Below, piece after piece: positions 1,522 through 29,144 of a stretch of 64,000 bases of DNA; the stretch's first letter is position 1, and the number at the start of each line of letters is the position of its first letter. Below the pieces are notes generated by a model, which had not been told where the DNA came from, searched no databases, and was given only the letters and a program-made list of their open reading frames with translations. The DNA is from Chiloscyllium plagiosum (taxonomy: Eukaryota). A program made the translations under genes and the position numbers. Location of the stretch: positions 5,207,047 to 5,271,046 of the forward strand of contig NC_057759.1 of assembly GCF_004010195.1 (NCBI RefSeq). The letters run 5' to 3'.

Positions 1522-1544
1522 TTTATAACTCATTCCTAAGCGAA

Positions 1545-1775: not shown

Positions 1776-2042
1776 TTCTTCAGCTTCTGAAGAAGATCAG
1801 AGGATCAGAGTAATTCAAGTGAACAAAGGCAGGATGACAACAGGAACAGTGTTATATCTGTAGAGAGAGAGAGGACTTGGGCAGTGGTCAGTGCTGATTG
1901 GTCATGATCTTCTCAAACCCCAGAGATACCAAGCCTGACTGTCATGATTGTCACAGGCATTGGTTAACTTATTCAATCAGCTTAGCATAAAATCACTCCT
2001 TGAGTAATTACTCTGATCACCATTTAGATTTTTAAAGCAATT

Positions 2043-2048
2043 TTTATT
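2043..2048 (-). terminator. Candidate polyadenylation signal (AATAAA) for gene A
   Basis: First clear minus-strand AATAAA noticed downstream of the stop codon; implies a ~2.9 kb 3'UTR; unverified. Confidence 0.2.
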
Positions 2049-4965: not shown

Positions 4966-5180
4966 CTATTTACAATAAATCGGATTTTCCTCCATTTTTA
5001 ACAGGTCATTTGCCTTCATGTCAGATTGTGGTACTGTATGTCTGAGACTCTCTTCCTCTGGGCTGCCAATCAAAGAGTACGTTGGGTCAGTCGGTAAAGC
5101 CATCGGATCTCCTTGGTTGAGCAGTGACCGGTTGTTGAGTTCGATGGGTGCAGAGGCCCTATGGCTCCTGTCATCTTTGC
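4966..5180 (-). CDS. Gene A exon 8: terminal cytoplasmic exon (SKDDRSH...PTYSLI...EENPIYCK*)
   Basis: tcttctcacatctag| acceptor; 70 open codons in phase 1 ending in TAG; YxxI and NPxY motifs; not in the ORF track. Confidence 0.8.
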
Positions 5181-6011
5181 CTAGATGTGAGAAGATAGCA
5201 TGTTTAATGAGATTTACAAAAAACCATGGACACCTGGGAGATGTTTCATTCCATTAAACTTTAGAATGTTTACAGAGTGTGATTAGATTCCAAGATCTAA
5301 ACTACTTACTTTCCACTTCCTGAATTTCAGTCTTGTCTCCATCTCTATGAAAACACAAAATGAAATATGAAGACACACAGACTCAGGCAATGTTAAACAA
5401 CAGTCTGCAGCTCTTGTTTTCTTAAAGTATGTGGAGAGCTGATTATGCAATATCCTCTTCGTTGTTTTGTCTCTCTCTTTTTCTTTCTCTCTCTCCCTCT
5501 GTTTCTCTTTATCTGTCTCTCTCTCTCTGTGTCTCTCTGTCTCTGTCTCTGTCTCTCTCTGTCTGTCTGTCTGTCTCTCTCTCTGTGTCTCTCTGTCTGT
5601 CTGTCTGTCTGTCTCTGTCTCTCTGTCGCTCTCTCTCTCTGTCTGTCTCTCTCCCCCCCACCCCCTCTCTCGGAAGGCTCCTCTGGATCGTTCAATCTCT
5701 CCGGCTCTGGCGACATGTTCATGGGAATGCAAGGGTTAAATGGGGATTCATATCCCGGCGCTCAGGTTGGTAACGCTCATGTTCTCTCAATGTTGGCTCG
5801 CGCGGCGCAGCGATCGTGTCCGTACCTCTGGACCAGGAGCTCTTAGGTTCAAAGTCCCTCCTGCTCCAGAGGTGTGTAATAACAGCAGCTTGGGTGGGTT
5901 AGTCGTGACCTATCTATGATGTAAGGTCATGGATGTGCGGGATTGCAATGGCTCTCTGTCTCTCTCTCTGCTGTCTGTCTGTCTCTGTCTCTCTGTCGCT
6001 CTCTCTCTCTG

Positions 6012-6044
<33 letters not shown>

Positions 6045-6098
6045 GTCTCTCTCTCTGCTGTCTGTCTGTCTCTGTCTCTCTGTCGCTCTCTCTCTCTG

Positions 6099-6131
<33 letters not shown>

Positions 6132-6247
6132 GTCTCTCTCTCTGCTGTCTGTCTGTCTCTGTCTCTCTGTCGCTCTCTCTCTCTGTCTCGGTCTCTCTCT
6201 CTCTCTCTCTGTGTCTGTCTCTGTCTCTCTCTCTCTCTCTCTGTGTC

Positions 6248-6278
<31 letters not shown>

Positions 6279-9200
6279 GTCTCCCTGTTTCTCTCTCTCT
6301 CTTTCTCTTCAGCTGGCTATCTCTAGAAATGTGAAAGATTTTGACGGATTGATGGCAGGAGTATGTACTGGGGATGGTGGGAAGAAGGAAGAAAGGGATG
6401 CTGTGTCTTAGGGTGGAAGTTAAGGGAGGGGGGAAGCCAAAGGGAGTGGTGTTGCGACAAGTAATTAAATAAAACATTTATCTGGAAGAGTTGTGAATGG
6501 CAGGAAAGCAGCTGTCTGATCACAAAGTAAAGGTTTTAACAGTAAACTACAAACTAGCAAAAGAAAAACACATAAAAATGAAATGAGGACAAAGGTTAGG
6601 ATCTAAAATGTTTAAACTTCCTGTTGAGTCTGACAGCTGTGAAGTACCTGATGAAAGACGAGGAGCATGCATTGAGCTTCATTGAAACACTACGGCAGGT
6701 TATGGACAGAGTGGTCAGACTGGGAGAAAGGTAGACAATTAAAATGACAGGCAAATGGGAGCTTGTGGTCAAGCTTGTGGATTGAATGAAGGTCTCAGTC
6801 TCATAATGTAGAGGAAACCACATCATGAGCAACAAATGCCTTGTATAAAATTGAAACAAATACAACTAAATCACTGTTTTATTTGGAAGGAGTGTTTGTG
6901 CTCTTAGACTATGAGAAAGGAGGATGCAAAAGGATTGATGTGCTTGGGTAATAAGGAGAACTCCATTTGGGAGTGATGGAGCTGTTAACCAGGTACCAAG
7001 GAGGAAGCAGTCCCTTCAGAGTGCTGAATGGAGAGACAGTGAAAAGGACTTTGTCCCACTTAAAATAAAAACAGAAAGGTTTTCTTGCACTCATGCCGTC
7101 TCACTCCTTCAGCCTACACACGTGTTCCTTATGCCTCAATCCAATCACCTACCATCTTCTCTCATACCAGCTCTGTTCCCATCCAGCTCCCAAGATCCCT
7201 CAAACTCTTTATGCCAAGTTAAGGTACTTTGATATCCATGTTTCCATAGTATAGACCTAATAGCCCCAGTGATAATAGGGTATGTTAAAAATAAAGCTAT
7301 AAAAACAGTTGGTCATTTAGTCATAACATTCCAATTTATTTTAAAAAGACAGATTTACTTAAGAAAAATGCAAATGTCAATCATCCAGGCCCTTGAAAAT
7401 ATCAAAAGCAGAAACTGCAAGTATACCTTACATATTTTACATTTGAGGAAATAAAAATTGTGCAACTGACAGGATACCAGATGAGACGAGATCTTATATT
7501 TTTCCGATATTCTTATATCCCTTGTTGCCCAATACCAGCCGAGGCCTGATGAAGGGCTCCAGACCAGAACGTCGATTTTCCAGCTCCTCGGATGCTGCCT
7601 GACCAACTTTTCCAGCACCGCACTCCCAACACAGGATACCAGAAATGTCAACCAAACAAACAATTTCTTACCCTGGGTGCCAAAGCTCCTCATAATGCAT
7701 ACAGCATACTGAAAGACCTGGGCGCCTTTAGACCTAGGCTGGTATGTCACACATTGGGCAACAAGGGACATAAGAACATCATAAAAACGTAAGATCTTAT
7801 TTCAGCCTCAACTTCACTTTCCTTCCTGCTTTCCACAATCCTTCAGCCCATTACTATTTAAAAATCTGTTTACCTCCTTAGAGTCATGGAGTCATCAAGT
7901 CCTACAGCATGAAGACAGGCCCTTTGGCCCAAACAGGTCCATGCCGACCAAAATGCCCATCAACATTAACCCCATTTCTCTGCACCTGGCCCATATTCTT
8001 CTCACCCTTTCCTATCTATGTATTTGTCCAAGTGCCTTTTAGATGTTGTGAATGCACCCATCTCAACCACTTCTGCTGACAGCTCATTCCATATGTGTAC
8101 CACCCTCTGTGTAAAATTCTTACATTTATTCAATGTCCCAGCATCCACTGCACTTTGGGGTAGTGAATTCCACAGATTCATGATCCTTGGAGAGAATTAA
8201 TGTCTCCTCATTTCTGTTTTAAATCTGCTACCCCAACCCTAATACTGCGACCTAGATTACCCCAGAAGGGGAAATATCCTGTCTACATCTACTTTATCCA
8301 TCCCTCTTAGCATCTTCTTAATCTTAATTAGATCTCCATTAATTCTTCTAAACTCCAGAGAGTTTAGGGCTAAATTGCTCAACCGCTCTTTATAAGAGAT
8401 CTCTAGAATCAATCTTGTGAATCTCCACTGAACTGTCTTCAATATAATTACATCTCTCCTCAAGTAAGGAGACTAAAATTGTACACAATACTCCAGGTGT
8501 GGTCTCACTAGTACTTTGTACAGTTGCAGTAACTACTTTTATACTTTATTTCTTTAACAGGTCCAGAAGGTGGAAAATGGGATTAGACTAGTTAGGTAGT
8601 TAGATACTAGAATAATTAGATGGTCCAAAGGGTCTTTTACAATGCTGTAGACCTCTATGGCTCTAATTCAATACCCAAATTAATATCTGAGCTCATTGCT
8701 AAGAATGCATAATGCACCTATTTTCACACCCAACTCCATGAAAATCCAACTCCCTGTGTCTGTAGGTCTCTCTCAGTCTGTCTGCCTCTTTACGTCTTTG
8801 TTTCTTTGGCTTTCTACATCTTTGTCACAAACTCTGACTCTGTTTCTCCCCAAGCTTTCTTGATGAGATAAGCTTTATCAGCTAGATCCACTGCGGTGAT
8901 AATGTGGAACTCGCTACCACAGAGTTATTAAAGTGAATAGTTTAGATACATGAAATGAGAGGTTGGACAACTTAGAAGAGAGAAGGCAATAGATGGTTAC
9001 TCTTGTGGATTTTGATGATGGAAAATGGGCAGACACTTAAGTGAAGCATAAACACCAATTTGGACTGGTTGGGCTGAATGACCTGTGCCATCTATCCTGC
9101 GTGATCCTATGTAGTAATGTAAAGAGCAGCAGCTAAACTGACACTTTGACTCAAACAGGCTGTGAAGTGTGAGAAGTGAAGATGTCCTAGCTCCACTGAG

Positions 9201-12200
9201 TTTGAAGTTGAGAAATCTTGTTAATAGAGTGTAGAGAGATCCCTACCCTGTAACCCAGCTGCACAGGCTGATGTACAGTGATTTAAATAATGCAGGGTTT
9301 CAAAGGAAGTGGAATACAGTAGAATCCTTACTGTGTGGAAGCAGACCATTTGACCCATTGAGTCCGCAGAGTACCCCATCCTATCCCTGTAACCCTACAT
9401 TTCCCATGGCTAATCCACCTAACCTGCACAACCCTGGACACTGTGAGCAATCCATCTAACCCGCACATCTTTAGCAGCTCCAAAAGCTAGTGCTTCCAAT
9501 TAAACCTGTTGCACTATAACCTGGTGTTGTGTGATTGTTAACTTTGTCCACCCCGGTCCAACATTGGCATCTCCTAATTGTTATGGTCTTCTAGGAGGGT
9601 CATGGTAGAGAAGAACCCATCTGTCAGTATGGGCTTCCACACAATTTAAATCATTTTCTGATCCTCCATAAACTTCCCTGCTGTCAGTTTTGTCAGTAAG
9701 AATATGGCTAGCTGTTTACCCTTTAACTGCTGGCTCTTTGATCAAACAATACACATGCTCTGTGGAAGCAGAGGTTGTGTGGATTTTCTCCTTCCCTTTG
9801 TCAGGCCTTGACTGGCTTGGTGGTGCTGGAACCTCTGTCACTGAGTAGGCAACAAGTTCCTTTTCAACCGACTTTTCCCTTCTGGGAACCACTGCGTATG
9901 CAACACCTAGACAGAAGAATGGATACGCATCGCGTGATTTTAGTTTCAACTCTGATTAAAAACAGACTTGGTAGAGGTGGAGAATAATTCAAGTCACTTA
10001 CATTCATTTTCCTGTGTTAGTTGAGCACTATTATCGCTATAGTTATTAAAAGAAAAGAAGAAACTGTGAATGTTTCATTAAATGAGCAGAAGTTACAACA
10101 AATTTGCCCAAAAACTGAGAAAAGCCCATTCATACCTCAGTCCTGTTGTTGAGAGTTCATCACAAGACATGTATGAGATTGGAAAGACAAAGTTAAAAAT
10201 TGCTGCGAGGAGTTTGCACTCAATTATAATTTTCTAAATTTGAATTCAACAATTTAAAGTTCTTACTTACCTTTGGCCATTTGTTGTTTTCTTCTGATTA
10301 AGTAAACTCCAACAATGCAAATTGGTACGACCACACATACTACAGCTACGATTGCAATGACTGGTTCTGCAGAAAAGAAGTAGCATTAATACGGGAACAA
10401 AACATATTTTCGTACCACAATTTATGGAATTATCAAGCTATGGATCAAATTCTGCAGCTTTAACCCAACTTGATATAACTTCAATTGTTTGAGACTCTAA
10501 GTGAATGTTTGTAACCTTAGCTTTTATGTTTACCTGTAGCTGCATGAAAATGTACCAGTCAAGTTAAAACCTGCACTCATCCAAAAGCTTTTGGGATGTG
10601 TGTGAGAATGTCCTCCCTTAGGAATGGAACTAATGTCCCATAGCAAAAACCAATGAGAAATCAATTACGTGGCACTGGTCAATTGGATCAAATGGTCTGT
10701 AAAGATTGAAGCCATTTAACTATTTCACGACATGAAAACAATGTTTACCAATAAATAAGAAAGTTTGTTCTGGGAAGGAGATATATTGATCAAGCATATG
10801 AGCCCAATCACATTGTTATTTGAATTTCAGACAACTTTGAAATAAAGAGGAAGACATGCACAATTGAACAGGTGAGTGAATTAAATGTGATATAATATAA
10901 AGTACAAACACAATGGTGGAATTTTATGAGGTCCTGAGTGACATTCATGAGGTGAGATTGTGACCGAGTTGTGAAAGAAGGCTAGTAAGGTCTTTCTTGA
11001 TGTCAGGAGCAACTTGCTGCATCGTTCATGCCAGTTGCTGCACAGTGAAGTAACAGCAAGTTGCCAATGAAAGGAGGATTCCAGTTTGTAAAGCACCTTA
11101 TTAATGATACAGCTCTCCTCAGTAATATTCAGATTCCTATTGACTGAATGTGCCAAACAAGCTGGACATCACAAATTCTTGATATGGAAATCAGAGAGGG
11201 TATCTGGCGTATTCAGCTCGCTGCTCACTCAAAAGGACCTCCATGTTGGACACCAGGCACCAACGTGGCAGGAGATGATCCATGGGCACTGCCACTCGTC
11301 CACAGACATTGGCATCTGACATGTGACAGTCTCCAAGAAAAACCCTCACAGAAAATCATCAGTGCACTTACTGGATGTTTCTATACTTCAGGGCTGCCCC
11401 TCAGGCTGTACTGGCAGCTCTCATTGAAATCCTATAGCAAGGATATTGTGTGCTCAGGGAGACACACCTAGCTCATGGACTGAACCAGGTGGTAACTCCA
11501 GGGTGTTCACCTACTGTCATAGCACTCACTCACTCTGTGTCTACCTTGATACCCTCAGTACCCTGGCCTCTCATTTTCTTTGGACATTTCCCCTCCCTAA
11601 TGAAAGGAAGCAGGTTCACGGTATTTCTGTTTTGCTGTGCTGTTTAGCACAGACATCAAGCCAAGAAGCTTGTCATGATGGCCTGCAGCTTTCAGTCAAG
11701 AGAAGGGAGATAGCCTTCACTCAGGGGCTGCCAGCACAGTCAGTCAAGGGTAATCCCCGATACCAGTCCAAGGGCTTGGATACAGTCAGGGAGATCAGGG
11801 TCAGGAAGAGCGAGCAACTGGATATTGGGCAACCCACCAATTCCCTTGACACTTTCCACCCTACTGTGAAGTGTTTCCCTCTTAGAATGAGAGACAGGCA
11901 GTTATTACAGGAGATGGAAGTGGTGGCACGACTATTACTGTTGGTGCAGCTGGGAGGTGTTCCAAGCAGGAGAGTAGGCAGTACAGAGGGAATGCAGGGG
12001 TTAATGATGTCAGGTTGGGGAGGGTGACAGTGAGTGTGGAAAGATGTTGCAGTCAATAGTGAGACTGTTATAGAATGAGCCTTAGTGGGAGCTGGGTGCA
12101 GTACAGACTGTAAGTAAGTCTGAGGTATCAGAGAGGAGATAATGGCATCTACCTTACCTAATCTTCTTCATACAGAAGCTGGGTATTCCTCCAGATGGCT

Positions 12201-15200
12201 GAGACTGCTTTAACCCAGGTGGCAATCTCAGACTAGGTGGTGATTGGGCCTAATGTGTGTTCCTGGGGAAGAGGAAGCATAGCTCTCCCCACCCCCACCC
12301 CCCATCCCTACTTTGCACCACCCGCACCACCCTGTTCAGTAGCACCCCCAGTTTCCTCCACACAAAGGTGGGACACTGATTTCCCCATTTCTGACATGTC
12401 TGGGGCAAATATCAGGAATGATGCAGAGCAGTTCCAGACTGACAGAGCTTGTCCCTGCGCACAACAGTCTTTTAAAGATTGCACTGGCACCACGAAAGCC
12501 AGTAATTTATGAGATATCCCTGCAGTGTGAGTTGATCCAAGGTGGGAATAGAATCAGACAAGAGGAATGGGAGTAAGATAGATAGTTAATGATGTGAGTT
12601 TATTAATACACAGCATGAAATCTCACCTGGGCTCCTGGACAAAATCTCTTTCAAACAACTCAACACGACCGGACACTTGGACAAAAAAAAGATTCAGCCC
12701 CCAATGTGTTAATGTGTTACTCTGGTAATGTATTACTGTGCTAATCTGTTACTCTGTTAATGTGTTACTGTAGTAATGTGTTACTCTGTTAATGCGTTAA
12801 TGTATTACTGTGTTAATGTGTTACTGTGGCAATGTTTTACTGTGTTACTATGTTAATGTGGTAATGTGTTACTGTGTTAATGTGTTATTGTAGTTAATGT
12901 GTTACTGTGGTAATGTGTTACTGTGTTAATGTATTACTGTGGTAATGTGTTAATGTGTCACTGCGTTAATGTATCACTGTGTCATAATGTCACTGTCACC
13001 GTATGGAATTAAATGTGAACAATTAATTTATATTTAACATTATAGGAACATTTTACTGAATAGTTATGTCTCTCCAGGCCTCCTCTATGAGATATAACTA
13101 TAAGTTCTTAGAATAAAAGATAGAATTCATTAAAATTGGTCCGACCCCAAAGGGAATTGGAATAACTAACCTCAGGCATACTCAAATATTGTCACCAATA
13201 TGGATAAAATATGGATTATCAATTTCCAAATTACATTATCAGATGAGTAATACCTGGCAACTTCTCAAACTGGAATAGTTTTAGAAATGAAAAGTACTAA
13301 CTGAAAATAGTCACAGTAATCAGCTGTCCACAGGTCCCGCTACATGAGAAAATTTGTGAAATAAACAAATGACCAGTCTCTCCTGAAATTGACATGTTAT
13401 CATTAGACACAGAACCTGCATTTCCTGCCTGACTTTACATGATGTTCTCATGCGGAAGATGAAAAAAAAAATCCCCTGCCATTTTCCAGTTTGGAGACAG
13501 TGAACTGATATGTGGGAAGAAACAACAAGGCTCATATTTCAAATAAACTAAAACAAAGAACTGCAGATCCTAGAAATCTGAAACAAATCTATAACAGTTC
13601 TGATGAAGGACCACTGAACCCAAAATATTGACTCTGCTTTCTCTCCACAGATGCTGCCAGACCTGCAAAGTTTCTCTAGCAATTCCTGTTGTTGAATATC
13701 AAGTAATTGTTTGTAGCAGAGCTAGACAGATGGATTTGTAACTAGAGAAAGCTCTGCCTGCTTTCTCAAGAAGGGCACTACTCCCAAAGGTAATGCTATT
13801 GGAGAAAAACAGCCAACATTGAGATCTGCAAAACACATGGCTATTGTTCATCCAAAGCATCCAAACCTACTGTGGTCTAGGTTAAACTGAACAACTCAAG
13901 AACATTAAAATGCGATAGTTCTAACAGCACCTGTGGAGACAGAAACAAACTGTCAAGTTCAATAAGACTCTTCTTTAGACAGTTCCAATACACTGGATTG
14001 GAAATGTTAGTACTGTTCTTTCTCTCTTCACAAATGATGCCAGATATGCTAAATGTCTCCAGCACTTTTGTTTTTATTGGAGATCTCCAGCACATGAACA
14101 TACAAACAAGGGGCAGGAGTCAGCTATTGGAATCTGCTGTGCCAGTCAATAAGGCCATGATAATTCTGATTTATTCCACATTCCCTCCTTACTTACCAAG
14201 AGTCAATCAACATGCACCTTCACTTTCACTGCCTTCAGTGAGAAAATATCTCTCTTCACCTCCACCTTAAAGGGTTTATACATTGTCATACATTTTCTCA
14301 TAAGAGGAAACATCCTTGCCACAGGTTAATGGTCCCCAAACAAGGGTGCCCATGTCATTGCAATTCTGTTCTGGTTATGGGTTGTGTCCCAAACTGTGGA
14401 CATAATATGAGGTGAAAGAAAGTTAGTTCTAGGCAAAAGGTAAAAATGGGCATTAAAAACTAATTGCAGCACCTGGCCTGTATGTGTTGAATGTGGGTAT
14501 GCTAGTGTTGGGGGACGTGTTTCATTATGATAAACAAATAGACATATGCACAAGGAGCAGGTTATGTTGGTGAGGAGGTACTGTCTCCTGTTCTTTACTC
14601 AACCCTTCCCTCCATTGTTTACAGCACGGTTAATTTAGAAAGCATCCCTTGCTTCGTGGATATTTTTATCCAAACCAAATGTATTTATATCTTGAAAGGG
14701 GTTAATCAAACCAAGTTTTTTTAAGTTCAAGAAGCAATGAGTTTATTTGCTACTTAAATGTGTTATGACTATAGGGTATGACTATAGAGATAATGGTCCC
14801 TCATTATCTCTGTAGTCACAGGATATTGCAGTTCAGGTTTTGCATACCATCTTTTATTTTGAAATATTGCTGTCTGAGGTACTGTTGATACTCTTCAGGT
14901 GCAACATCCAATAGTTCCTCTCAGGAATCTGTGTAATTACTGAATTTTTAGATACGATTGCTATTAAAAATAAACATATGTTGCACCTAAGAGATCAATA
15001 TATCTGTAACTGTTTTTAGGTTGTGGTCCATTGTCATGACAACATCCATCCTGTTAAGAGTCCTCTGGAATGTGTTTCAATAAAGTTGCTTCTTAGTCTA
15101 CAAAACATCAGTGAACACAAGCATTGCCTATGTAGCCTTTTCTCATAAGACAATCTTCCTATTTCAGGTATGAGTCAAATAAACCTTCTGTGAACTGCCT

Positions 15201-18200
15201 CCAATGTATTTACGTTCTTCAGGGAATGCAATGGCCTAGTGGTATTATCACTGGACTGTAAATCCTGAGACCCGGGTAATGTTTTGGTAATGTTTGAATC
15301 CTGCCATGGCAAATGGTGGAATTTGAATTCAATAAAAGGAAAAAAAACCAGCATTAATAATCTAATGATGATCATTAATCCACTGTTGATTGTTGGAAAA
15401 TCCGAGCTGGTCTTACCTGGTCTGGCATCCTTGTGACACCAGACCCACAGCATTGTGCTTGACTCTTAACTGCCCTCTGGGCAATTAGGGATGGGTAATA
15501 AATGCTGCCTAGCCAGCAATACTCTCATCCAGTGAATGGAAAAAATAGATAAGAAGACCAGTACAGTACAAAGAATTCCATATGTGATCTCATCGATATC
15601 CTGTATAACTGAATCATAACCTTTCGTCTAAACTTATTCCCCTTGCAATGAATGGTAATTTTTTTTAGCTTTCTGAATTGCTTGCTTTACCTTTTGTGAT
15701 TCATGCACGGTGGCAGTGGGTGGCACGGTGGCACAGTGGTTAGCACTGCTGCCTCACAGCGCCAGAGACCTGGGTTCAATTCCCGCCTCAGGCGACTGAC
15801 TGTGTGGAGTTTGCACATTCTCCCCGTGTCTGTGTNNNNNNNNNNNNNNNNNNNNNNNNNNNNNNNNNNNNNNNNNNNNNNNNNNNNNNNNNNNNNNNNN
15901 NNNNNNNNNNNNNNNNNNNNNNNNNNNNNNNNNNNNNNNNNNNNNNNNNNNNNNNNNNNNNNNNNNNNNNNNNNNNNNNNNNNNNNNNNNNNNNNNNNNN
16001 NNNNNNNNNNNNNNNNNNNNNNNNNNNNNNNNNNNNNNNNNNNNNNNNNNNNNNNNNNNNNNNNNNNNNNNNNNNNNNNNNNNNNNNNNNNNNNNNNNNN
16101 NNNNNNNNNNNNNNNNNNNNNNNNNNNNNNNNNNNNNNNNNNNNNNNNNNNNNNNNNNNNNNNNNNNNNNNNNNNNNNNNNNNNNNNNNNNNNNNNNNNN
16201 NNNNNNNNNNNNNNNNNNNNNNNNNNNNNNNNNNNNNNNNNNNNNNNNNNNNNNNNNNNNNNNNNNNNNNNNNNNNNNNNNNNNNNNNNNNNNNNNNNNN
16301 NNNNNNNNNNNNNNNNNNNNNNNNNNNNNNNNNNNGGTGGAGATGAGGCTGAGATATGATCAGCCACAGTTGTACAGAATGGGGGAAGCAGGTTTTGGAG
16401 GGACTGAATGGCCACGTTCTGCTTCTAACCCTTATATTCTAAAGTGAAACATACCTTGCACATCCACATATTTGTAAGCTGACGTGTATACAGGACCGTT
16501 GGGATACTTAACAAACTGCATTTGGCATCGATACCGTCCTGCATCCTCACACATAACCCGTTCCTTTTCAAAAGAAACACTTTTATTTCTTGTCCGGATC
16601 TCAGCCACAACAGAGCCTTCCCGATAAAATGTGTAAATGAATTCCTCTTGCATACGGAACGTGAATTGACAACTCAACTTCAGTGTCTGTGCATACCACA
16701 GAGCTTCTGGCTCAGATTCAATACTCATAAGCGAATCAGGAGCTGTCAAGAAAGAAATGACTTGAATTAATAACGGGGCGTAAGAACCAAGCAGACCAAT
16801 CAGCTGCTTGCTGCCAGCAAAGTCTCTACTCATACAAGTCCCCGACTCCAAGTCGCTGTGTAACCAACCCTTCCACTTATGATCATAAAACAAATTTCCA
16901 AAAGGGGCACCGTGTTTTGCTTTTGCAGTGTCTTTTCCCCATTTCAGCCCACTATCCAAAATACAGGAAAAAATAATCAGTAATTCTCAGGAGCAGTGCA
17001 TCCCATTGACAGGAAATATAGAGGAGCTGGATATTGTTTAAATGGAGAAAGGCTGCAGAAAGCTATGGATCAGAGGGATTTGAGGAGTCCTTGTTTGTGA
17101 ATCACAAAAAAAGCTAGCATGCAAATACAGTGGGTTACTGGGAACACAAATTGTTTTTATTTCAAAGGAAATGGGCTATAAAAGGTGGGAAGTTTTACTA
17201 AAGCTATACAGCCAACACATTAGTCAGACTGTAGCTAGGATCCAGTGAACAGTTTGGGCCCCATATCTAAGGAAGGTTAGACCAACATTGGAGGCAGTCC
17301 ACAGAAGGTTCACTCAGCTGAGCTGGGTAGGAAGGGACTGACTAATGAGGGAGAAATTGAGTACGTTGGGCCTGTTCTCATTGGAGTTTACAAGAAAGAG
17401 AGGCGACCTTATGGAATATTCTTCAAGNNNNNNNNNNNNNNNNNNNNNNNNNNNNNNNNNNNNNNNNNNNNNNNNNNNNNNNNNNNNNNNNNNNNNNNNN
17501 NNNNNNNNNNNNNNNNNNNNNNNNNNNNNNNNNNNNNNNNNNNNNNNNNNNNNNNNNNNNNNNNNNNNNNNNNNNNNNNNNNNNNNNNNNNNNNNNNNNN
17601 NNNNNNNNNNNNNNNNNNNNNNNNNNNNNNNNNNNNNNNNNNNNNNNNNNNNNNNNNNNNNNNNNNNNNNNNNNNNNNNNNNNNNNNNNNNNNNNNNNNN
17701 NNNNNNNNNNNNNNNNNNNNNNNNNNNNNNNNNNNNNNNNNNNNNNNNNNNNNNNNNNNNNNNNNNNNNNNNNNNNNNNNNNNNNNNNNNNNNNNNNNNN
17801 NNNNNNNNNNNNNNNNNNNNNNNNNNNNNNNNNNNNNNNNNNNNNNNNNNNNNNNNNNNNNNNNNNNNNNNNNNNNNNNNNNNNNNNNNNNNNAGATGCA
17901 ATGGGCTGAATGGCCTAATTCTGATCCCACATCTCAAGAATTTGAGAATGCAAGTGTCACAAGTCACTGCTCTGCTTATATAGCAGTTAGTGCCTGCTAC
18001 GTACGGAACAGATACTGCTGAGATCAACTATTCTTTCTGTGCTGTTAATGTTTGGAAAGGAGAACCATTTCTTAATGTCCTGCATTGACTGTGGAAGAGA
18101 AACTGTCAAGTGGGTGGGGGATTACAAAAGGATGAAAAGAATGCATCAGATTTAGCGTCATAGAGTCATCAACGCATAGGTTCATACAACACAGAAATGG

Positions 18201-21200: not shown

Positions 21201-24200
21201 ACAGCCACAATGGGAAGCACTGAAATTTGCTTGCTGCAGTAGCTTGCCACTCAGACAACTCATGTTGGCTTAGGCTGATGAGTGGTAAGTAACATTCCCA
21301 ACTCACAAATTCCAGACAACGACTATCTCCAATAAGAGAGATTCGAACCATCACCCCTTGACATTCATTGGTGTTACCATCTCTGAATTGCCTCAATATC
21401 AATATATAGGGGTTACCAGTGAGAGAGAATCTCACCAGCCCCTTCACTTTCGAAGATATTACCATGACTGAATCCGTCACACTATCAGTATTGGGGGTGG
21501 GGGTGGGGGTGGGGGAGGTTTACCATTGAGAGAGAATTGAACCATCTCCCTTTGGTGTTCTATTGTGTTATTATCACCAAAGTCCCCACTATCAATATGC
21601 TGGGGTTACTATTGAGGGATAATTTAACCATCATCCCCTTAAATTTCCCTATTATCAACATTCTGGAGGCTATGTTGAGAGATCATAACCATTGCCACCC
21701 ATCCTCCCCGCTCCACAACAACATTTGGGTTGCTATCCTTAAAAGCAAATCTAATCATCGGCCCCTCATTGGTGTTAGCATCACTGAATCACTCATTATC
21801 AGCATCATGGGATGACCATCAAGAGAGAATTTAGCCAATGGGCTCTGACTTTCAATATTAATATCATCACTGAATCCCCCCACGATTAATATCCTGGGTA
21901 TGTCATTGACCAGAAACTGGATTGGACTCACCATGTAAACACAATAGCTACAAGAGCAGGTCAGAGGCTGGGAAGCCTGCAGTGAGTAACTCACCTTTGG
22001 ACTCCCCAAAGCCTGTCCACTATCAACAAGGTGCAGTGACAGGTAGCATAGTTTTGTGCGGGGAAAATCATATCTCAATATCGTGATTGAATTTTTGGAG
22101 AAGAGAGAAAAAAAAATTGATAAAGATAGAGTGGTGGATGTTGTCTATCTGGACTTCAGCAAGGTGTTTGACAAGGTTCTGCATAATAGACTGTTGAGTA
22201 AGGTTAGATCACATGGAATATAGGGAGAGCTAGCCATTGGACACTCAATTGGCAGGAAGGTAGGAGTCAGAAGGTGATGGGTTGCTTTTCAGAGAGAAGG
22301 CTTGGGATCAGTAGGGCCACAAGGATCGGTGCTGCATCCACTGCTTTTCCTTATTTAAATAATTTGGATGAGAATATAGGAGGTATAGTTTATAAAATAG
22401 CAGACAACACAGTTGATGGCAAGGTGGACAGTGAAGGAAGTTGTCTCAGAGTACAACGGGACCTTGATCAGATAGGCTGAAGAGTGGCAGATGGAGTTAA
22501 ATTTAGATAAATGTGAGGTGTTGCTTTTTCATAACGCAAATTAGGGCAGGACTTACACACATGATGGCAGGGTTCTGGGATTGTTATCAGACAAAGAGAA
22601 TGCAAGTTTGTAGTTCATTGAAGATAGCATTGCAGGTGAGGGACAAGGTGAAGAAGGTATTTGGTACGCTTGCCTTTAATGGTAAATGCATCGAATATAG
22701 GAGTTGGGAGGTCATATCATGGCTATACAGGACATGTGTACAGCCACATTGAGAATACCAATAGCCGCAAGATGTTGTGAAGTTTGAGAAAAGATTAACA
22801 AGGATGTTGCCAGGGTTGGAGGGTGTGAGCTGTGCGGAGAGATTGAATGAGCTGGGACTATTTTCCCTGGAATTTTGGAGGCTGAAGGGTGACATGACAG
22901 ATGTTCATAAAATCATGAGGAACATAGAGTGTGTGAATAGTCAAGGTATTATCCCCAGGTTTGGGGTGTACAAGAGGGCATAGGTTTAAAGTGAGAGGGA
23001 AAAGATTTAAAAGGGACCTAAGGGGGGACCTTTTTCATGCAGAGTGTGGTGGGTATGTATGGAATAAGCTGCCAGAGGAAGTGGTGAAGATAGGTACAAT
23101 TGCAAGATTTACAAGGCATCTGGATGGGTTTATGAATAGCACGGGTTTAGAAGGATATTGGCATAGTTGTGGCAAATGGGATAGATTAATTTAGGATATC
23201 TGGAGGGTAGCAAATGTTGTCCTCTTGTTCAAGAAGGGGAGTAGAGACAAGCCTAGCAATTATAGACCAGTGAGCCTTTCATCGGTTTTGTGTAAAGTTT
23301 TGGAAAAGATTATAAGAGATATGAGTTATATTCATCTGGAGAGCAATACATTGATAAGGGATAGTCAACATGGTTTTGTGAAGAGTAGGTCGTGCCTCCC
23401 AAATCTTATTGAGTTCTTTGAGAAGATGACCAAAGAGATGGAGGAGGATAAAGTGGTTGATTGTGGTGTATATGCATTTCAGTAAGGCATTTGACAAGCT
23501 TCTCCACGGTGGACTATTGCACAAAACACAGAGGCATGGGATTAAAGATAATTTAGCAGATTGGATCAGAAACTGGTTACCTGAAAGAAGATGGGGGTGG
23601 TGTTTGATGGGAAATGTTCATCCTGGAGTTAAGTTACTAGTGGTGTACTGCAAGGATTGGCTTTGGGACGACTGCTGTTTGTCATTTTTATAAATGACCT
23701 GGATCAGGGCATAGAAGGATGAGTTAGTAAATTTGTGGATGACATTAAGGTCAGTGGAGTTGTGGATAGTACTGAATGATGTTGGAGTTACAGAGGGGTA
23801 TAGATAAGGTGCAGAGCTGGGCTTAAAGATGGCAAATACAGTTTAATGCAGAAAAGTGTGAGGTGATTCACTTTGGAAGGAGCAACAGAAATAAAGAGTA
23901 CTGGGCTAATGGTAAGATTTTTGATAGTGTGAATAAGCAGAGCGATCTTGGTTTCCATGTGCATTGATCCCCAAAAGTTGTCACCGAGGTTGATAGGGTA
24001 ATTAAGAAGGCATTCGGTGTGTTAGTAGAGGGATCGAGTTTTGGAGCCATGAAGTCATGCTGCAGTTGTACAAACTTCTGGAGCGGCCGCACTTGGAGTA
24101 TTGTGTTCAGTTCTGGTAACCGCATTATAGGAAGGATGTGGAAGTTTTGGAAGGGGTTACGAAGAGATTTATTGGATGTCACCTGATATGGAGGTCAGGT

Positions 24201-27200
24201 CTTCACTTCTGGAGCGGCCGCACTTGGAGTATTGTGTTCAGTTCTGGTAACCGCATTATAGGAAGGATGTGGAAGTTTTGGAAGGGATTTATTGGATGTC
24301 ACCTGTTATGGAGGTCAGGTCTTCTGGGGAAAGGCTGAGGGACTTGAGACTGTTTTCATTGGAGAGAAGTAGGTTGAAAAATAACTTAATTGAGGCATAT
24401 AAGATAATCAGAGGGTTAGACAGGGTGGACAGTGAGAGCCTTTTTCCTTGGATGGTGATGGCTAGCACGAGGGGGCATAGCTTCAAATTGAGTGATGAAA
24501 GATATAGGGACAGATGTCAGAGGTAATTTGTTTATTTAGAGTAGTATGGGGCATGGAATGCACTGCCTGCAACAGTAGCAGAGTCACCAACTTTAAGGGT
24601 ATTTAAATGGTCATTGCATAAACATATGGATGAAAATGGAATAGTGTAGGATATGTGGGCTTAAGAGTCGTTCCACAGGTCGGTGCAACCTCGAGGGTCG
24701 AAGGGCCCCTGCTACACTGTGATGTTCTATGTTCTATGGTCAGTGTGGACGAGTTGAACCGAAGGGTCTGTTTCTGTGCTGTACAGTTCAATGACTCTAA
24801 ATCAGGAATATGATGGACACAAAATGTTAACTGTGTTTTTCTCTCTCCCTCTCAGCGCACAGATGCTGCCAGACCTGCTCAGCTTATCTAACACTGTGTT
24901 TGATTCAGACCTCTCAAACCTGCAAGACTTTGTTTTCCATGATGTAAACACTGATGCTAGTGCAGACACTGTGGGGTTCTTTAACATGAAAGGAAGGCAC
25001 AGTGGATCTTAACATACCTTCTCGTATTTGTAGAATCATCACTTGCTCTGAAATACACAATTAGACACAATCAATAAGTTTTAAGGAAAACGGAATTGAG
25101 GATGATCAGATCAGCCATGACCTAATCAAATGGCAGAGCATACTCGATGGGCCGAATGGCCTACTGTGATCCTATGCCTTGTCACGAGGGCCCTTGCTTT
25201 AATTTGCTCAGCGGTGATACATAATCAGACTCATTTGTTGAGGTCACATGTACGTTTTTGTGTTTGTGAGAAAAATTGTGTGTGCGTGAGAACCAGTGTG
25301 TGAGTGTGTGTGCGTGAGAGAATGAGACAGAGTGAGAGTGTATGCCTGTGTGAGGCAGTGTACATAAGGGAGTGCGGTCATGTGCCTGTAAGAGCGTGCA
25401 TGTGTGTGTTTGTGTGAGAGTGTGAGAGAGTGAGAGAGAGAGAGAAAGAGAGAGGGGTGTCTGTGTATAAGAGACAGGGGAGCCTGTGTATGTGTATGTG
25501 AGAGAGAGAGAGGAGTGTGTTTGTGGGAGAAGAAAGGAGTTGATTCCTGATGAAGGACTTTTGCCCGAAATGTTGATTTTTCTGCTCCTCAGATGCTGCC
25601 TGTCCAGCACCACTCTAATCTTGACTCGAATCTTAAGCATCTGCAGTACCCGCTTACGCCTGAGAGAGAGAGGGGTCTGTGTGTGAGAGGGAAAGTGTGC
25701 TTATATACTTAAGTGAGAGGTGGAGAGAGGGAAACAGATAGAGAGATGGAAGGGATAAACATCAAGGAATGCAGAGTGAGGGAGATGGAGAAAGGGAGAG
25801 AGACAGGGACAGAAGAGGGGTAAATAAAGAGAGAAGCAAGGACAATAACATGGAAGCACGGAGAGGGAGAGAGAGAAAGAAGGAGGAAGAGAAGTGTTCA
25901 GATAGAGATGGCGGTAGAGTGTTTACAGAGTAAGAGAGAAAAAGACCGTGACAAAGAATGTGAGAGATAGGGATAGACAGATATTAGAAAGGAAGACAAA
26001 AGAGAGAGAATGGGTAAAGAGAGTGAATGTGGGAGAAAAAATGGAAGGGGGGAGAGAAAGAGAGAGATGAGAAGATGAAGAGATGGAGAAGTGAGATGGG
26101 ACAGAAACAGATTCAGAGAGACACACAGGGAGAGAGATGTTCTCAGGACCTGCATTTAATTCCTAGTATGGCAGAGAGCAAATACTGAAATTATAAAAAT
26201 CTGCAACTAATGCTGGGCCCAACCAGCAATGCCTACATCCTGTGAATGCATTAAAAAGACACATCAATTACTAATGTGATTATGTTCAAAGTATCCATTC
26301 GGACCCTCAAGCTTGCTGCACTATTGAGTAGGATCATAGCTGATCCTGTATCTCAAAGCCATATCCATAGAATCCTTACAATGTGGAAATAGTACATTCA
26401 GCCCAATGAGCCCACACCAACCTTCCAAACAGCATCACACACAGACCCATCTCCCTAACCTAACCCTGCACTTGTCATGGCAAACCTACCTAGACTACAC
26501 ATCCCTGGACACTAAGGGTAATTCCCCTTGGCCAATTCAACTTAATCTGCACATCTTTGGATTTTGGAAGGGAACTGGAGCACTGGGAGGAAACCCACAC
26601 AGACATGGGCAGAATGTGCAAACTCCACACAGACAGTTGCCCAAAGGTGGAATCGAACCAGTGTCCCTGGTGCTATAAGGCAGCAGTACTAGCCATTGAG
26701 TCACCATGCTACCCCCACATTCCCCATTTTGTCTTCATTTCACTTGGTTCCTTTCAAATCTAAACAATTATCACTCGATTCAGATTCCTTTGTCTATCAC
26801 CATTTCGCTTTTTGTTTCTCCACATCTGTTTCACTTTTAGCCACGTTGTACTGCATCTGCTATGTCTTTGCCCACTCACTCAAATTGTCTAAATCACTTC
26901 CTTTGCATCCTCCTCACAATCCTGGCCAGTTTTGTGTCATGAGCAAACTTGGAACTGTTGCATTTGGCTCCCTCATCCAGGTCATTAATATATATTGAGA
27001 GTGGCTGGGGCCCATGTATTAGTTCCTGCAGTATCCCACTAGTCATGATTTGCCTCTTGGGTAAAAAACACATTTATTCCCACTCTCTCTCTTGTCCATC
27101 AACTAATTCTCAATTCACATCAATATACTACCATCAAACTCTTGTCCTTTCACTTTGCATATAAACCTTGTCTCAAATGTCTTCTGAAAAAGCCAAATAA

Positions 27201-29144
27201 GCTACATGTACTGTTTCTCCCTTATTTATCCTTAGACCCTCAGAAAATGACAGTTGATTTATTAAGATTCTTCTGCCTCTCATAACCCATTCTGGCTTTG
27301 TCCAACGTCTTTAATGCTTTCTAAGTGTTCTGTCATCACACCTTTTACAGGTATTTTCAGAATTCCCCCTAGAATGTTCAGCTATCTGGTCTGTAATACT
27401 GTGATTATTTTTATCTCTCTCTGCCGCCTACTTTTTAAACAGAGGGATTACATTACCTCTCCTCCAATATGTGGGAATTGTTCCCAAGTCTATAGAATCT
27501 AAAGCATTATCAACAATGCGCCCATTATATCCAGTTCCACTTTCTTAAAGATGCTGAGATATCAATTAAGAGTCCCTCAGGACTTATCAATCTTCAATCC
27601 CACTAATTTCCCCAATACCATTTCCCTACTATTACTGATTTCCTTCAGTTCCTCCCTCTCAATAGATGTTGGTTATCTGACATTTACTGAGAGATGATTT
27701 ATTTCCCTCTTTTGAGAAGACATAACCAAATTATGCATTCAAATCTCCTGCCATTATAATATCCCCTCGATTCAGACTGCAATGGACCTACAATTATCTT
27801 CATAAATACTTTTCTCTGCACATGTTTGCAGAAGCTTTTACAGGAGAAAGTGAGGACTGCAGATGCTGGAGATCAGAGCTGAAAATGTGTTGCTGGAAAA
27901 GCGCAGCAGGTCAGACAGCATCCAAGGAGCAGGAGAATTGACGTTTCGGGCATGAGCCCTTCTTCAGGAAGAAAGGCTCATGCCCGAAACGTCAATTCAC
28001 CTGCTTCTTGGATGCTGCCTGACCTGCTGCACTTTTCCAGCAACACATTAGAAGCTCTTAGAGTCAGTTTTTAATGTTCCCTGCAATTTTAAACTCATTC
28101 GCTATTGTCCTGCTCTTGATCAAAAATTTTGTCTTTGTTTTCCAAATTCTACAATTCAATCATGCATATTCATTTACATGTACACCAGCACATGTGTACT
28201 CACAAACACACACACTACCTTTATACACTCATGGGATTTGGGTATTGCTGACGAGACCAGCATTTATTGCTTGTCTTTAATTGTGCTCTCTCTCCTGTGG
28301 CCTCTTTCTCTCTAATTCCCCTGCACCCTCAATCTCCTGCTCTCCCGCACCCTCATTCTCTCTCTCCTGCACCCTCACACTCTCTCTCCCACACCCTTAC
28401 TCCTGCACCTACACTCTCTCCCGCACCTTCACTTTCTCTGGCTCTCCACCGCATCCTCACTGTCTCCCTTTCTCCCCCGCACTCTCACTCTCTGTCCCTC
28501 CTCTGTACCCTCAATCTCCCTCTCATGACATCACTCCCTCTCTCCTGCACACTCTCACACACACTGTCTCTCTCGTGCACCCTCAATCTCCTTTTCACCC
28601 CGCACCCTCTCTCTCTCTCTATCTCTCTCTCTCACACACACACACACCTTCACTCTCTCGCTCGCACCCTCACTCTCTCTGTCCTGCACGAGTGTATTTG
28701 AGAGAGCATTTGGATGAGAGAATCTGAGAGAGGGAGACTGTGCGTGAAAGCTGTGAGAGATTGTGAGGAGTGCATGTAAGAGAGGGTATTAGTGTGTACG
28801 TGAGAGAGATATATTGTGCGTGAGAGTGTGAGAGATTGTGAGAGTGCATGTAATAAGGTGTCTGTGTGGGAGAACAACAGTGTTGGAAAGTGTGTGTAAG
28901 TGTGTGAATAAGTGTGAGAGTGTGTGAGTGAGTGAGCGTGTGCGTGTGTACAATCTGGGAAATGCCAGCATGCATGTGCACTGCTGTCCGTACACAATAG
29001 GATTGTGCCTCTGTTCACATTCCCATTGTACACTGAGCTGAGGGCAGGAGCTGAATAACAGATTTATTCCTTGCACCCACCCTGAAATAGTGATAAAAGC
29101 TGGAGATACATACCGAGCAGTAAGAGAGCAGAGAAGATCTCCAT
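4966..29144 (-). CDS. FcR/FCRL/LITR-like two-Ig-domain transmembrane receptor with ITIM-bearing tail (gene A). 8 coding exons, 385 aa: 29144-29114, 25047-25018, 20971-20696, 16742-16455, 10366-10271, 9906-9720, 5344-5310, 5180-4966
   Basis: Manual splicing. Exon lengths 31+30+276+288+96+187+35+215=1158 nt give one open frame from ATG to TAG. All introns are GT..AG, with phases 1,1,1,1,1,2,1. Domain order is signal-Ig-Ig-TM-Tyr-motif tail. Confidence 0.85.
5310..5344 (-). CDS. Gene A exon 7: 35-nt cytoplasmic exon ([12 protein letters not shown])
   Basis: Strong acceptor ttttgtgttttcatag| and donor |gtaagt; converts phase 2 to phase 1 exactly as needed to join exons 6 and 8. Confidence 0.8.
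5468..5660. repeat. (CT/GTCT)n microsatellite
   Basis: Low-complexity TC/TGTC run. Confidence 0.95.
5790..5890 (+). mobile_element. tRNA-derived SINE head fragment
   Basis: A-box-like ggcgcagcga and B-box-like ggttcaaagtccc, followed by ctgctccagaggtgtgtaataac. Confidence 0.45.
5951..6310. repeat. (CT/GTCT)n compound microsatellite with higher-order repeat
   Basis: Low-complexity TC run with repeated ctgctgtctgtctg...tgtcgctctc blocks. Confidence 0.95.
7765..8545 (-). mobile_element. Nested CR1/HER1-type LINE 3' fragments
   Basis: Minus-strand [29 protein letters not shown] (CR1 ORF2 C-terminus) and typical 3' ends. Confidence 0.8.
9720..9906 (-). CDS. Gene A exon 6: cytoplasmic exon (GVAYAVV...VAYSVT...[12 protein letters not shown])
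   Basis: ttcttctgtctag| acceptor, phase 1-2, donor GG|gtaaac; contains the ITIM consensus VAYAVV. Confidence 0.8.
10271..10366 (-). CDS. Gene A exon 5: transmembrane exon ([32 protein letters not shown])
   Basis: 96 nt, phase 1-1, cttcttttctgcag| acceptor and AAAG|gtaagt donor; ~22 hydrophobic residues followed by an RRK stop-transfer motif; not in the ORF track. Confidence 0.9.
12703..13000. repeat. AT-rich minisatellite (~16-bp unit TGTTAATGTGTTACTG)
   Basis: Degenerate tandem units. Confidence 0.9.
15230..15546 (+). mobile_element. tRNA-derived SINE (SacSINE1/DeuSINE-like) with A-rich tail
   Basis: ggcctagtggta A-box head, ...ggcaattagggatgggtaataaatgctg... 3' tail and A-run; family name assigned from memory. 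Confidence 0.55.
15704..15835 (+). mobile_element. HE1-type SINE 5' part, truncated by gap
   Basis: ggcacggtggcacagtggttagcactgctgcctcacagcgccagagacctgggttcaattccc head. Confidence 0.85.
15836..16335. other. Assembly gap (500 N)
   Basis: N run. Confidence 1.
16455..16742 (-). CDS. Gene A exon 4: Ig domain 2 (TLKLSC...FIYTFYREG...EDAGRYRC)
   Basis: 288 nt, phase 1-1, ttctttcttgacag| acceptor and CAAG|gtatgt donor; FCRL-type C strand with F/Y instead of Trp. Confidence 0.92.
17428..17893. other. Assembly gap (466 N) inside a CR1 fragment
   Basis: N run; the paralogous position (~49350-49675) is CR1 3' sequence. Confidence 1.
18160..19650. mobile_element. Two CR1 LINE fragments in opposite orientation (minus 18160-18980, plus ~19040-19650)
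   Basis: [19 protein letters not shown] on the minus strand and [14 protein letters not shown] segment on the plus strand; shared with paralog B. Confidence 0.75.
20696..20971 (-). CDS. Gene A exon 3: Ig domain 1 (FcR D1-like; [22 protein letters not shown]...YNW...EDVGEYRC)
   Basis: 276 nt, phase 1-1, ttag| acceptor and |gtgag donor; Ig Cys-Trp-Cys core and DxGxYxC motif. Confidence 0.92.
20992..21185. mobile_element. Short inverted-arm Penelope-derived element with hammerhead core and 14-bp TSD
   Basis: TSD catagaaaaacata at 20978-20991 and 21186-21199; absent from paralog B. Confidence 0.85.
21335..21960 (+). repeat. Tandem ~85-90 bp repeats derived from a LINE RT segment (HPLTFNGITITESPTINILGVTI-like)
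   Basis: Repeated aaccatcaccccttgacattc..ccatcactgaatcc..atcctggggttaccattgagagagaa units; paralogous array at 57945-59530. Confidence 0.75.
22040..24800 (+). mobile_element. CR1 LINE (22040-23200) with a second CR1 (~23205-24733) nested in its 3' end
   Basis: RT motifs ([32 protein letters not shown]); the host 3' end resumes at ~24735. Confidence 0.85.
25018..25047 (-). CDS. Gene A exon 2: 30-nt signal-peptide mini-exon ([10 protein letters not shown])
   Basis: Acceptor tgtgtatttcag|, donor GAAG|gtatgt, phase 1-1; conserved in the paralog at 61361-61390. Confidence 0.8.
25255..26135. repeat. (GT)n/(GA)n low-complexity tract with an embedded Penelope-derived element (~25543-25660)
   Basis: Dinucleotide-rich; paralogous tract at 63350-64000. 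Confidence 0.85.
26368..26712 (-). mobile_element. HE1-type SINE (diverged)
   Basis: Reverse complement of the HE1 body (tgtgtggagtttgcacattct). Confidence 0.8.
27841..28049. mobile_element. Short inverted-arm Penelope-derived hammerhead element
   Basis: Inverted arms; imperfect 11-bp TSD agaagct(t/c)tta. Confidence 0.8.
28285..28950. repeat. CT/CA then GA/GT low-complexity tracts in intron 1
   Basis: Dinucleotide-rich sequence. Confidence 0.85.
29114..29144 (-). CDS. Gene A exon 1: signal peptide part 1 ([10 protein letters not shown])
   Basis: gtgATGG Kozak-like context, hydrophobic codons, phase-1 donor CTCG|gtatgt. Confidence 0.75.

Follow-up and report, generated by a model that had tools for sequence, protein, structure and literature searches.

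A 385-residue Fc-receptor-like reading frame in the bamboo shark genome is very probably an assembly chimera of two receptor genes

In mammalian FCRL genes and some XFL genes, the signal peptide is encoded on two exons that follow a 30/21 rule, and combinatorial exon joining is known in FcR-like families (PMC2413239). According to a survey from 2014 (PMC4016189) and a review from 2026 (PMC13337447), cartilaginous fishes have no FCRLs. B-cell expression of the FCRL-like ectodomain gene is nevertheless already in print. PMC11372145 refers to a locus as fcgr1a-like. Here we analysed a window, that is, a stretch of 64,000 nucleotides of Chiloscyllium plagiosum contig C50 (NC_057759.1, positions 5,207,047 to 5,271,046), for which an earlier note had proposed a complete inhibitory FcR-like receptor with a signal-Ig-Ig-TM-tail layout. 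Our analysis indicates that the 385-aa frame is very probably a chimera of two shark genes, created by the assembly across a scaffold gap, and not a real protein (Table 1).

Table 1. Features of the window discussed in the text (window coordinates)
Feature	Position	Strand	Remarks
Exon 1, FCRL-like copy A signal exon S1	29144-29114	-	31 nt coding, ATG at 29144, GT donor, residues identical to P0001/XP_043539744.1
Exon 2, copy A signal mini-exon S2	25047-25018	-	30 nt, AG/GT sites
Exon 3, copy A Ig domain D1, FcR D1 type	20971-20696	-	276 nt, Pfam Ig_2/Ig_3, 100% to P0001
Exon 4, copy A Ig domain D2	16742-16455	-	288 nt, Pfam Ig_2; final in-window exon of the FCRL-like gene
Scaffold gap separating two genes	15836-16335	.	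500 N; N run inside intron 4
Window part of 34.6-kb V-set-gene block (C50:5188259-5222881)	1-15835	.	flanked by a 500-N gap at either end; placement probably wrong
Exon 5, V-set receptor TM exon (LOC132834692-like)	10366-10271	-	96 nt, 88% to P0018 312-344
Tail micro-exon absent from 385-aa model	10142-10136	-	7 nt; run X1 joint with inserted letters (1/4 runs)
Tail exon absent from 385-aa model	10036-10002	-	35 nt; joints in runs X1, X2 (2/4 runs)
Exon 6, V-set receptor tail exon	9906-9720	-	187 nt, 95% to P0017, 90% to P0018
Exon 7, V-set receptor tail exon	5344-5310	-	35 nt, AG/GT sites; loose end of X1 contig enters exon
Exon 8, V-set receptor tail, last coding exon	5180-4966	-	215 nt, 86% to P0018 419-492
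Broken FCRL-like paralogue, copy C	43050-61390	-	S2 61390-61361, D1 57787-57512

The earlier note gave no exon coordinates, and the exon set in Table 1 is a reconstruction that agrees with the note in length, in the number of exons and at both ends. Spliced on paper, the eight exons sum to 1158 nt and encode 385 aa and a stop, with GT-AG sites at all seven introns; the claimed open frame with canonical splice sites is indeed present. Half of the exons (4/8) fall in a frame of the stop-to-stop ORF list (at least 70 aa). The D2 exon ends and the TM exon starts in phase 1; the D2-TM junction reads open because both flanking exons share this phase, and an open frame is expected by chance.

Exons 1 to 4 belong to a gene that is already annotated, automatically. 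Residues 1-208 of the model are those of RefSeq XP_043539744 (bamboo shark 'FcgammaRI-like'), and residues 1-212 showed 99.5% identity with P0001 (XP_043539744.1-747.1, 418 aa, 'high affinity immunoglobulin gamma Fc receptor I-like isoform X1', Chiloscyllium plagiosum). The S2 mini-exon is present in P0001, P0002 and P0005 and skipped in isoform P0003. D1 and D2 are Ig domains by Pfam Ig_2 (E 2.4e-8 and 2.4e-6, respectively), and the D2 exon had 10 genome matches, nine of them on C50. From D2 the P0001 model runs on to a D3 exon at C50:5154162, a junction that rests on the RefSeq model, and its D3, TM and tail lie 70-98 kb from the window exons. The TM (FALIIGGSAVAAVLLITFLLLF) is uncharged, and the tail, encoded beyond the window, carries three ITIM-consensus sites (IVYSAV, VTYASL and SIYQNI). 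The proposed layout with two Ig domains does not agree with this annotated gene, which has another tail and three Ig domains here, and four in isoforms of close relatives. Exons 1-4 encode the signal peptide, D1 and D2 of one member, copy A, of a tandem FCRL-like cluster. Copy A probably continues to D3 (and possibly D4), an uncharged TM of its own and a tail with three ITIMs, using either the downstream RefSeq exons or an unassembled copy of its own. Judging from the ITIM consensus, the product would be an inhibitory leukocyte receptor recruiting SH2 phosphatases, with shark Ig as a possible ligand.

Sequence comparisons support an FcR/FCRL-type signal-D1-D2 for exons 1-4. As the earlier note held, D1 is of the FcR/FCRL type: its best single-domain PDB match was FcgammaRIIIa D1 (47.5 bits, domain E 1.5e-11), and FCRL5 came next among the Fc-family entries. 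CEACAM was rejected as the D1 family because CEA topped the list only when the scores of six weak domains, the best at 19.7 bits, were added together. The D2 C strand reads YTFYRE without Trp, again as claimed; the PDB matches of D2 were weak (best E 0.008), which limits an assignment to the D3/D5 or LITR type. Membership in an FcR/FCRL-like family thus holds for signal-D1-D2 and fails for the TM and tail, which come from a V-set receptor. In classical Fc receptors, Fc binding features a Trp sandwich, formed by one Trp in the D1-D2 linker and one in the D2 BC loop. The shark ectodomain lacks both of them: its linker (RVSSPDSLMSI) and loop (CQFTFRMQ) contain no Trp, whereas FcgammaRIIIa has IGW and HSW there. 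Strabismus, RGS-like, UFC1, PEX19 and TCR_zetazeta served as markers of human 1q23 synteny, and none of these five families was matched on C50, in searches of a fragmented assembly that give floors. Strabismus and TCR_zetazeta matched C12 only, RGS-like matched C35 and two unplaced contigs, and UFC1 matched unplaced sequence; PEX19 had no match in the assembly, which is again a floor.

Exons 5 to 8 resemble a different kind of receptor. Residues 208-385 of the model showed 82% identity with P0018 (Hemiscyllium LOC132834692) in a comparison with exon 7 placed 2 nt off, and the tail with exon 7 corrected showed 88%. The family has a TM and tail with conserved VAY/HVYCL/YSL/NPIY sites and a Ser/Thr stalk exon upstream; in exon 6 there are one ITIM-consensus site (VAYAVV) and two further tyrosines. 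The inhibitory tail attributed to the FcR-like receptor belongs to an unrelated V-set receptor, in which this tyrosine-bearing tail would presumably signal. Two tail exons are missing from the 385-aa model (Table 1). The 35-nt exon also occurs in P0017, P0019 and P0021, and the 7-nt micro-exon, which has a longer form in P0019 and P0020, is probably what is left of a 22-nt exon, with TG now standing at the acceptor position. A profile search of the PDB with the V-set receptor gave no match and identified no clear relative, a PDB search gave two marginal SCN4B matches (E 0.03-0.04), and Atlas matches were to generic V-set clusters (PD-1-like and CD200R-like, 0.91-0.94), which serve as leads only. 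Because the receptor is conserved in at least eight shark species and has a short-tailed twin, it may represent an undescribed paired-receptor family.

The two halves of the model did not occur together in any of the 190 proteins compared, of which 162 matched the N half, 13 matched the tail and none matched both. A search with a Hemiscyllium query returned 29 matches, 28 of them Ig proteins (39-100% identity) and the 29th named histone H4-like. A receptor formed by exon shuffling in this lineage, in which FCRL-type D1-D2 domains were joined to a V-set TM and tail, would account for seven in-frame GT-AG junctions on the same strand with plausible intron sizes, and combinatorial exon joining has the precedent mentioned above. 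If true, it would be a new immune receptor still in the process of forming. We consider such a gene highly improbable, however. Besides the lack of both halves in any one of the 190 proteins, only one residue separates D2 from the start of the hydrophobic stretch (EPVIAIV). A fusion by duplication would also leave a second copy of the V-set TM and tail, whereas this DNA had one match in the assembly and tail exon 9720-9906 is single copy.

A contig assembled from sequencing reads, possibly of RNA, connects the TM exon to the V-set gene. Four sequencing runs were examined over 9640-10700, where contigs came from X1 and X2 only and none from the organism B runs X3 and X11; tail exon 9720-9906 was covered in both X1 and X2. 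In one X2 contig, 88 nt lie on the TM exon and 151 letters are loose; among the latter, an 18-nt piece matches the end of a V-set stalk exon on unplaced contig C30927, directly before its GT donor. In this contig (one of four runs), the TM exon is spliced to the stalk exon and not to D2. The contig has a depth of 2.6. Its run carries the label organism A, is only presumed to be RNA and may be from a sister species, given one differing letter within the covered exons. It is the sole contig that reaches the 5' end of the TM exon, and the stalk is the only upstream partner seen for that exon; rare variants are lost from contigs, and an infrequent D2-to-TM splice could therefore escape them.

A physical link between exons 4 and 5 is also missing from the assembly. 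The gap in intron 4 starts 119 nt past the D2 exon; by itself it does not prove a misjoin. Together with the match of the halves to two protein families and the splicing of the TM exon elsewhere, it argues against the view that the eight exons form one complete gene. The same gap (C50:5222882-5223381) and another of identical length (C50:5187759-5188258) bound the V-set block, which also carries a second V-set fragment, colinear with a copy on C40 (1463 nt, 86%) and with C93608 (703 nt, 97%). These two records bear related ectodomain exons. The 34.6-kb block was likely scaffolded by mistake into the FCRL cluster, and its true place would likely be another chromosome. A 190-kb search of C40 (2100001-2290000), however, found no matching 500-N gap to mark such a place, and C30927 cannot be joined directly to the block because it does not overlap the block's end. 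A translocation or insertion might instead have placed the block truly inside the cluster, with the genes still separate: D2 would then be spliced to D3, and the V-set gene alone would use the TM exon. The RefSeq P0001 model crosses the block as though it were an intron, and the cluster is dynamic, with split or stop-containing copies. Such a placement is nonetheless improbable: both ends of the block are identical 500-N gaps, the stalk exon that splices to the TM lies on a separate unplaced contig, and in all seven other shark species for which both families were matched, the two lie on different records, of different length.

The FCRL-like side of the gap shows what the cluster looks like. 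Copy A and its tandem twin, copy B, aligned in pieces that total 18.5 kb with a mean identity of 88%, and A tracked B at 96% to within 2 nt of the gap edge, with no biological breakpoint visible in the alignment there. Copy B has a 2-nt deletion in D1, and RefSeq merges the 5' exons of A with the 3' exons of B. This merging, the deletion and the single D3 found for the pair (84% to the Hemiscyllium relative; the count is a floor) would fit two haplotypes of one FCRL-like gene that the assembler placed in tandem. The window would then contain a false duplicate in addition to the false join, which is compatible with a chimeric 385-aa frame. We regard this as unlikely, if less so than the two alternatives above, since 12 of 95 D2 residues are different between A and B, no fewer than separate either copy from other species (11-15), a 3.4-kb insertion distinguishes them, and Hemiscyllium RefSeq has a second, D2-truncated protein (P0011). 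Copy C is broken: the second Cys of its D1 is replaced by Tyr, its D2 from 48425 lacks a GT donor and is disrupted by a frameshift and a stop, and its D3 is ended after 16 codons by repeat-like sequence.

A complete 385-aa receptor is very likely not made, and constructs for Ig-binding tests would suit the three- or four-domain form rather than this model. The FCRL-like cluster itself is real, in contrast to the published claims that cartilaginous fishes have none. Through the probably mis-scaffolded block, a single shark receptor gene ends up divided among three records, and the TM and tail come from an uncharacterised V-set receptor.

Compared with known systems, the two halves have separate relatives. 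XP_043539744.1 is identical to exons 1-4 over signal, D1 and D2 and has no overlap with exons 5-8. Automatically named RefSeq FCRL2/3/4/5 or Fc-receptor-like models from Hemiscyllium, C. punctatum, Stegostoma, Rhincodon, Scyliorhinus, Mustelus, Heterodontus and Pristiophorus have the same D1-D2 type, and none bears the TM or tail found in the window. Both of these instead correspond to those of LOC132834692, LOC125446882, LOC125487102, LOC121271932 and LOC144480561, with the same five tyrosine positions; the ectodomain of this family has no FcR-type C2 domains and consists of a Cys-rich N-terminal region, together with one V-set domain and a Ser/Thr stalk. Among classical receptors (FcgammaR and FcepsilonRIalpha), D1 is most like that of FcgammaRIIIa and D2 matches weakly. 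The four-domain Hemiscyllium relative P0009 is collinear with the ectodomains of FCRL4 and FCRL5: residues 17-388 of human FCRL4 (PDB 9mbz/9loc set, with FCRL5) align end to end with its residues 18-399, and human FCRL5 is its best match (E 1.6e-37, summed over repeats). FCRL4/FCRL5 and Xenopus XFL (PMC2413239) likewise have a split signal peptide, ITIM tails and a tandem cluster. The signal peptide of copy A is split into 31 + 30 nt, its second exon departing from the 30/21 rule with 30 nt, not 21; the likeness is one of similarity and does not imply orthology, and Ig binding in the FCRL/XFL family is known only for some mammalian members.

The eight minus-strand exons of the 385-aa model add up to 1158 nt, that is, 385 residues and a stop codon, and both large exons (D1 and D2) encode Ig domains. 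The canonical sites and open frame described in the earlier note were reproduced (GT-AG in seven of seven introns), but the single complete gene was not, as the two halves match two gene families and intron 4 contains a gap. The D1 and D2 exons are of phase 1-1, the usual pattern of Ig-superfamily genes, and the TM exon begins in phase 1. The frame across the D2/TM join is open because phase 1 occurs on both sides, and any such exon pair on the same strand would read open.

Coordinates of the model exons and related features (C50, contig NC_057759.1, on which the window occupies 5207047-5271046; C40, another contig of the assembly)
Feature	Position	Strand	Remarks
Exon 1 of 385-aa model	window 29144-29114	-	GT-AG introns
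Exon 2 of 385-aa model	window 25047-25018	-	GT-AG introns
Exon 3 of 385-aa model (Ig domain D1)	window 20971-20696	-	GT-AG introns
Exon 4 of 385-aa model (Ig domain D2)	window 16742-16455	-	GT-AG introns
Exon 5 of 385-aa model (TM)	window 10366-10271	-	GT-AG introns
Exon 6 of 385-aa model (tail)	window 9906-9720	-	GT-AG introns
Exon 7 of 385-aa model (tail)	window 5344-5310	-	GT-AG introns
Exon 8 of 385-aa model (tail)	window 5180-4966	-	GT-AG introns
P0001 D3 exon	C50:5154162		in copy B
P0001 TM exon	C50:5134468		in copy B
P0001 last tail exon	C50:5125920		in copy B
Copy B, tandem FCRL-like gene	C50:5125795-5173904	-	S1, S2, D1 (2-nt deletion), D2, D3, D4, TM, tail (L024-L029)
Copy C, broken FCRL-like paralogue	window 43050-61390	-	damaged D1, D2, D3
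Short-tailed twin of V-set receptor	C40:2166002-2177189	-	His in TM (L031, L030)

The gap in intron 4 is a run of 500 N (window 15836-16335) that starts 119 nt past the D2 donor. The window's TM and tail exons lie on a 34,623-nt block flanked by two gaps of exactly 500 N, and a third 500-N gap was found at C50:5118363; the remaining gaps read were 39 to 1905 N long. We infer that the fixed 500-N runs are scaffolding joins. A partial V-set paralogue lies on the same block and is colinear with the copies on two other contigs, C40 and C93608. Copy A (the window's FCRL-like gene, exons 1-4) tracks its tandem twin, copy B, at 96% up to 2 nt from the Ns, indicating that what interrupts the FCRL gene is the gap, with no rearrangement visible there. 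The 385-aa receptor is almost certainly not made as a real protein, and its frame is very probably an assembly misjoin. Both of its parts are real: the ectodomain comes from an annotated FCRL-like gene, and an uncharacterised V-set receptor supplies the anchor and tail.

The D1 exon is 100% identical to a C. plagiosum RefSeq protein (P0001, XP_043539744.1) named 'high affinity immunoglobulin gamma Fc receptor I-like', which follows exons 1-4 letter for letter and then continues with a third Ig domain, another TM and another tail. The D3, TM and tail exons of P0001 were not in the window; they lie 70-98 kb beyond D2 inside copy B, and the RefSeq model merges 5' exons of copy A with 3' exons of copy B. 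As to whether the receptor was already annotated, which the earlier note left undecided, the 5' half is a RefSeq model and the 3' half matches another, uncharacterised gene.

The FCRL-like cluster spans about 2.25-6.43 Mb of C50 and its first 13 kb, with at least 10 D1 loci and at least 7 TM-exon matches among at least 54 matches, several of which carry stops. In copy C, the second Cys of D1 is missing, D2 carries a frameshift and a stop and has no GT donor, and D3 is broken off after 16 codons by repeat-like sequence. None of five synteny markers was matched on C50, in searches that give floors in this fragmented assembly. Two 3.4-kb insertions, mutually 86% identical, were observed at C50:5191248-5194705 (L022) and 5174527-5177917 (L023-L024), one with a frame that we take to resemble a retroviral envelope fragment. 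An FCRL D1 fragment occurs in P0052, a RefSeq protein of 156 aa named 'histone H4-like', and the cluster may have histone genes interspersed in it. At window 1-1522, about 90 copies of a 17-bp unit are arrayed in tandem with 78% matches, and the long ORFs there are repeat-derived.

The tail exon at 9906-9720 matched nine proteins among 40 candidates, all from sharks and labelled uncharacterised or generically. The full-length matches run from a Cys-rich N-terminal region through one V-set domain and a Ser/Thr stalk to the window's TM and tail. Among 190 proteins compared, 162 matched the N half, 13 the tail and none both. Furthermore, the two families lay on records of different length in all seven other species returning both, both records exceeding 15 Mb in five of them. 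The window's TM/tail DNA had one match in the assembly. The Hemiscyllium V-set receptor P0018 (LOC132834692) had nine, its ectodomain exons falling on C40 and C93608 and its TM/tail on C50; a 1283-nt contig, C30927, holds the end of the V exon and the stalk of this gene at 95%. The C40 copy is a paralogue, since its own short TM/tail is present there. A match to the alternative last exon of a C. punctatum V-set isoform (P0017) was seen at window 2351-2485 (-).

Reads from four sequencing runs were assembled on window 9640-10700; X3 and X11 yielded no contig. Three contigs, with joints at exon edges, came from X1 and X2, two runs of organism A that are presumed to be RNA; this organism differs by one letter and is possibly a sister species. 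The earlier note had proposed seven junctions for confirmation by RNA reads. D2 stood upstream of the TM exon in no X1 or X2 contig from this interval, contigs dropping rare forms. Instead, one X2 contig (depth 2.6) joined 88 nt of the TM exon to 151 further letters, an 18-nt piece of which matches the end of the C30927 stalk exon, immediately before its donor. This stalk-to-TM splice is consistent with all the other evidence, but a single contig would not suffice by itself. The X1 contigs showed extra 7-nt and 35-nt exons between the TM exon and 9906, and also ran from 9720 into 5344. With both extra exons, the tail is 14 residues longer than that of the 385-aa model, and the corrected tail is 88% identical to P0018. 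Window 10136-10157 (-) corresponds to a tail exon that is 22 nt long in other carpet sharks. Its AG acceptor has apparently been lost here (the position reads TG), and use of a cryptic AG yields a 7-nt micro-exon that keeps the frame.

Because P0001 has an uncharged TM and three ITIM-consensus sites in its tail, the FCRL-like gene product is likely to be inhibitory, and would recruit phosphatases through these sites. Three other shark FCRL-like proteins (P0043, P0048 and P0054) have an Arg at the TM start and a short tail without tyrosine, and are likely activating partners. Of the five tyrosines in the V-set receptor tail, one lies in an ITIM-consensus site and none in an ITSM, and structure searches gave no clear solved relative. 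Our best guess is that it is a leukocyte receptor that signals and may have an activating twin. The Carcharodon (P0027, Asp) and Mustelus (P0030, Asn) twins, like that on C40, have a polar TM residue, and the V-set receptor and its short-tailed twins could form a paired activating/inhibitory family.

Annotated relatives of the FCRL-like gene, named FCRL2/3/4/5-like or Fc-receptor-like, were present in eight other shark species (29 matches among 8000 scored candidates). Wang, Belosevic and Stafford reportedly described fcrl genes in elephant shark in 2021. PMC4016189 states that FCRL homologues were not found in sharks, and PMC13337447 (2026) again describes sharks as without them. Our literature search, with most subscription journals outside its reach, found no paper devoted to a shark FCRL cluster.

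The FcR/FCRL-like nature claimed for the ectodomain held: D1 is closest to FcgammaRIIIa D1 (47.5 bits, single domain), and a four-domain isoform from Hemiscyllium aligns over its full ectodomain with that of FCRL4, its best match being FCRL5. CEA, rejected as the D1 family, ranked first solely by the sum of six weak domains. Classical FcgammaRs contact Fc through a Trp pair, whereas the window gene lacks that pair and is thus FCRL-like rather than a classical FcR. XFL and mammalian FcR-like genes (PMC2413239) share with the window gene a signal peptide split over two exons, although the second of these is 30 nt in the window gene and 21 nt in mammalian FCRL and some XFL genes.
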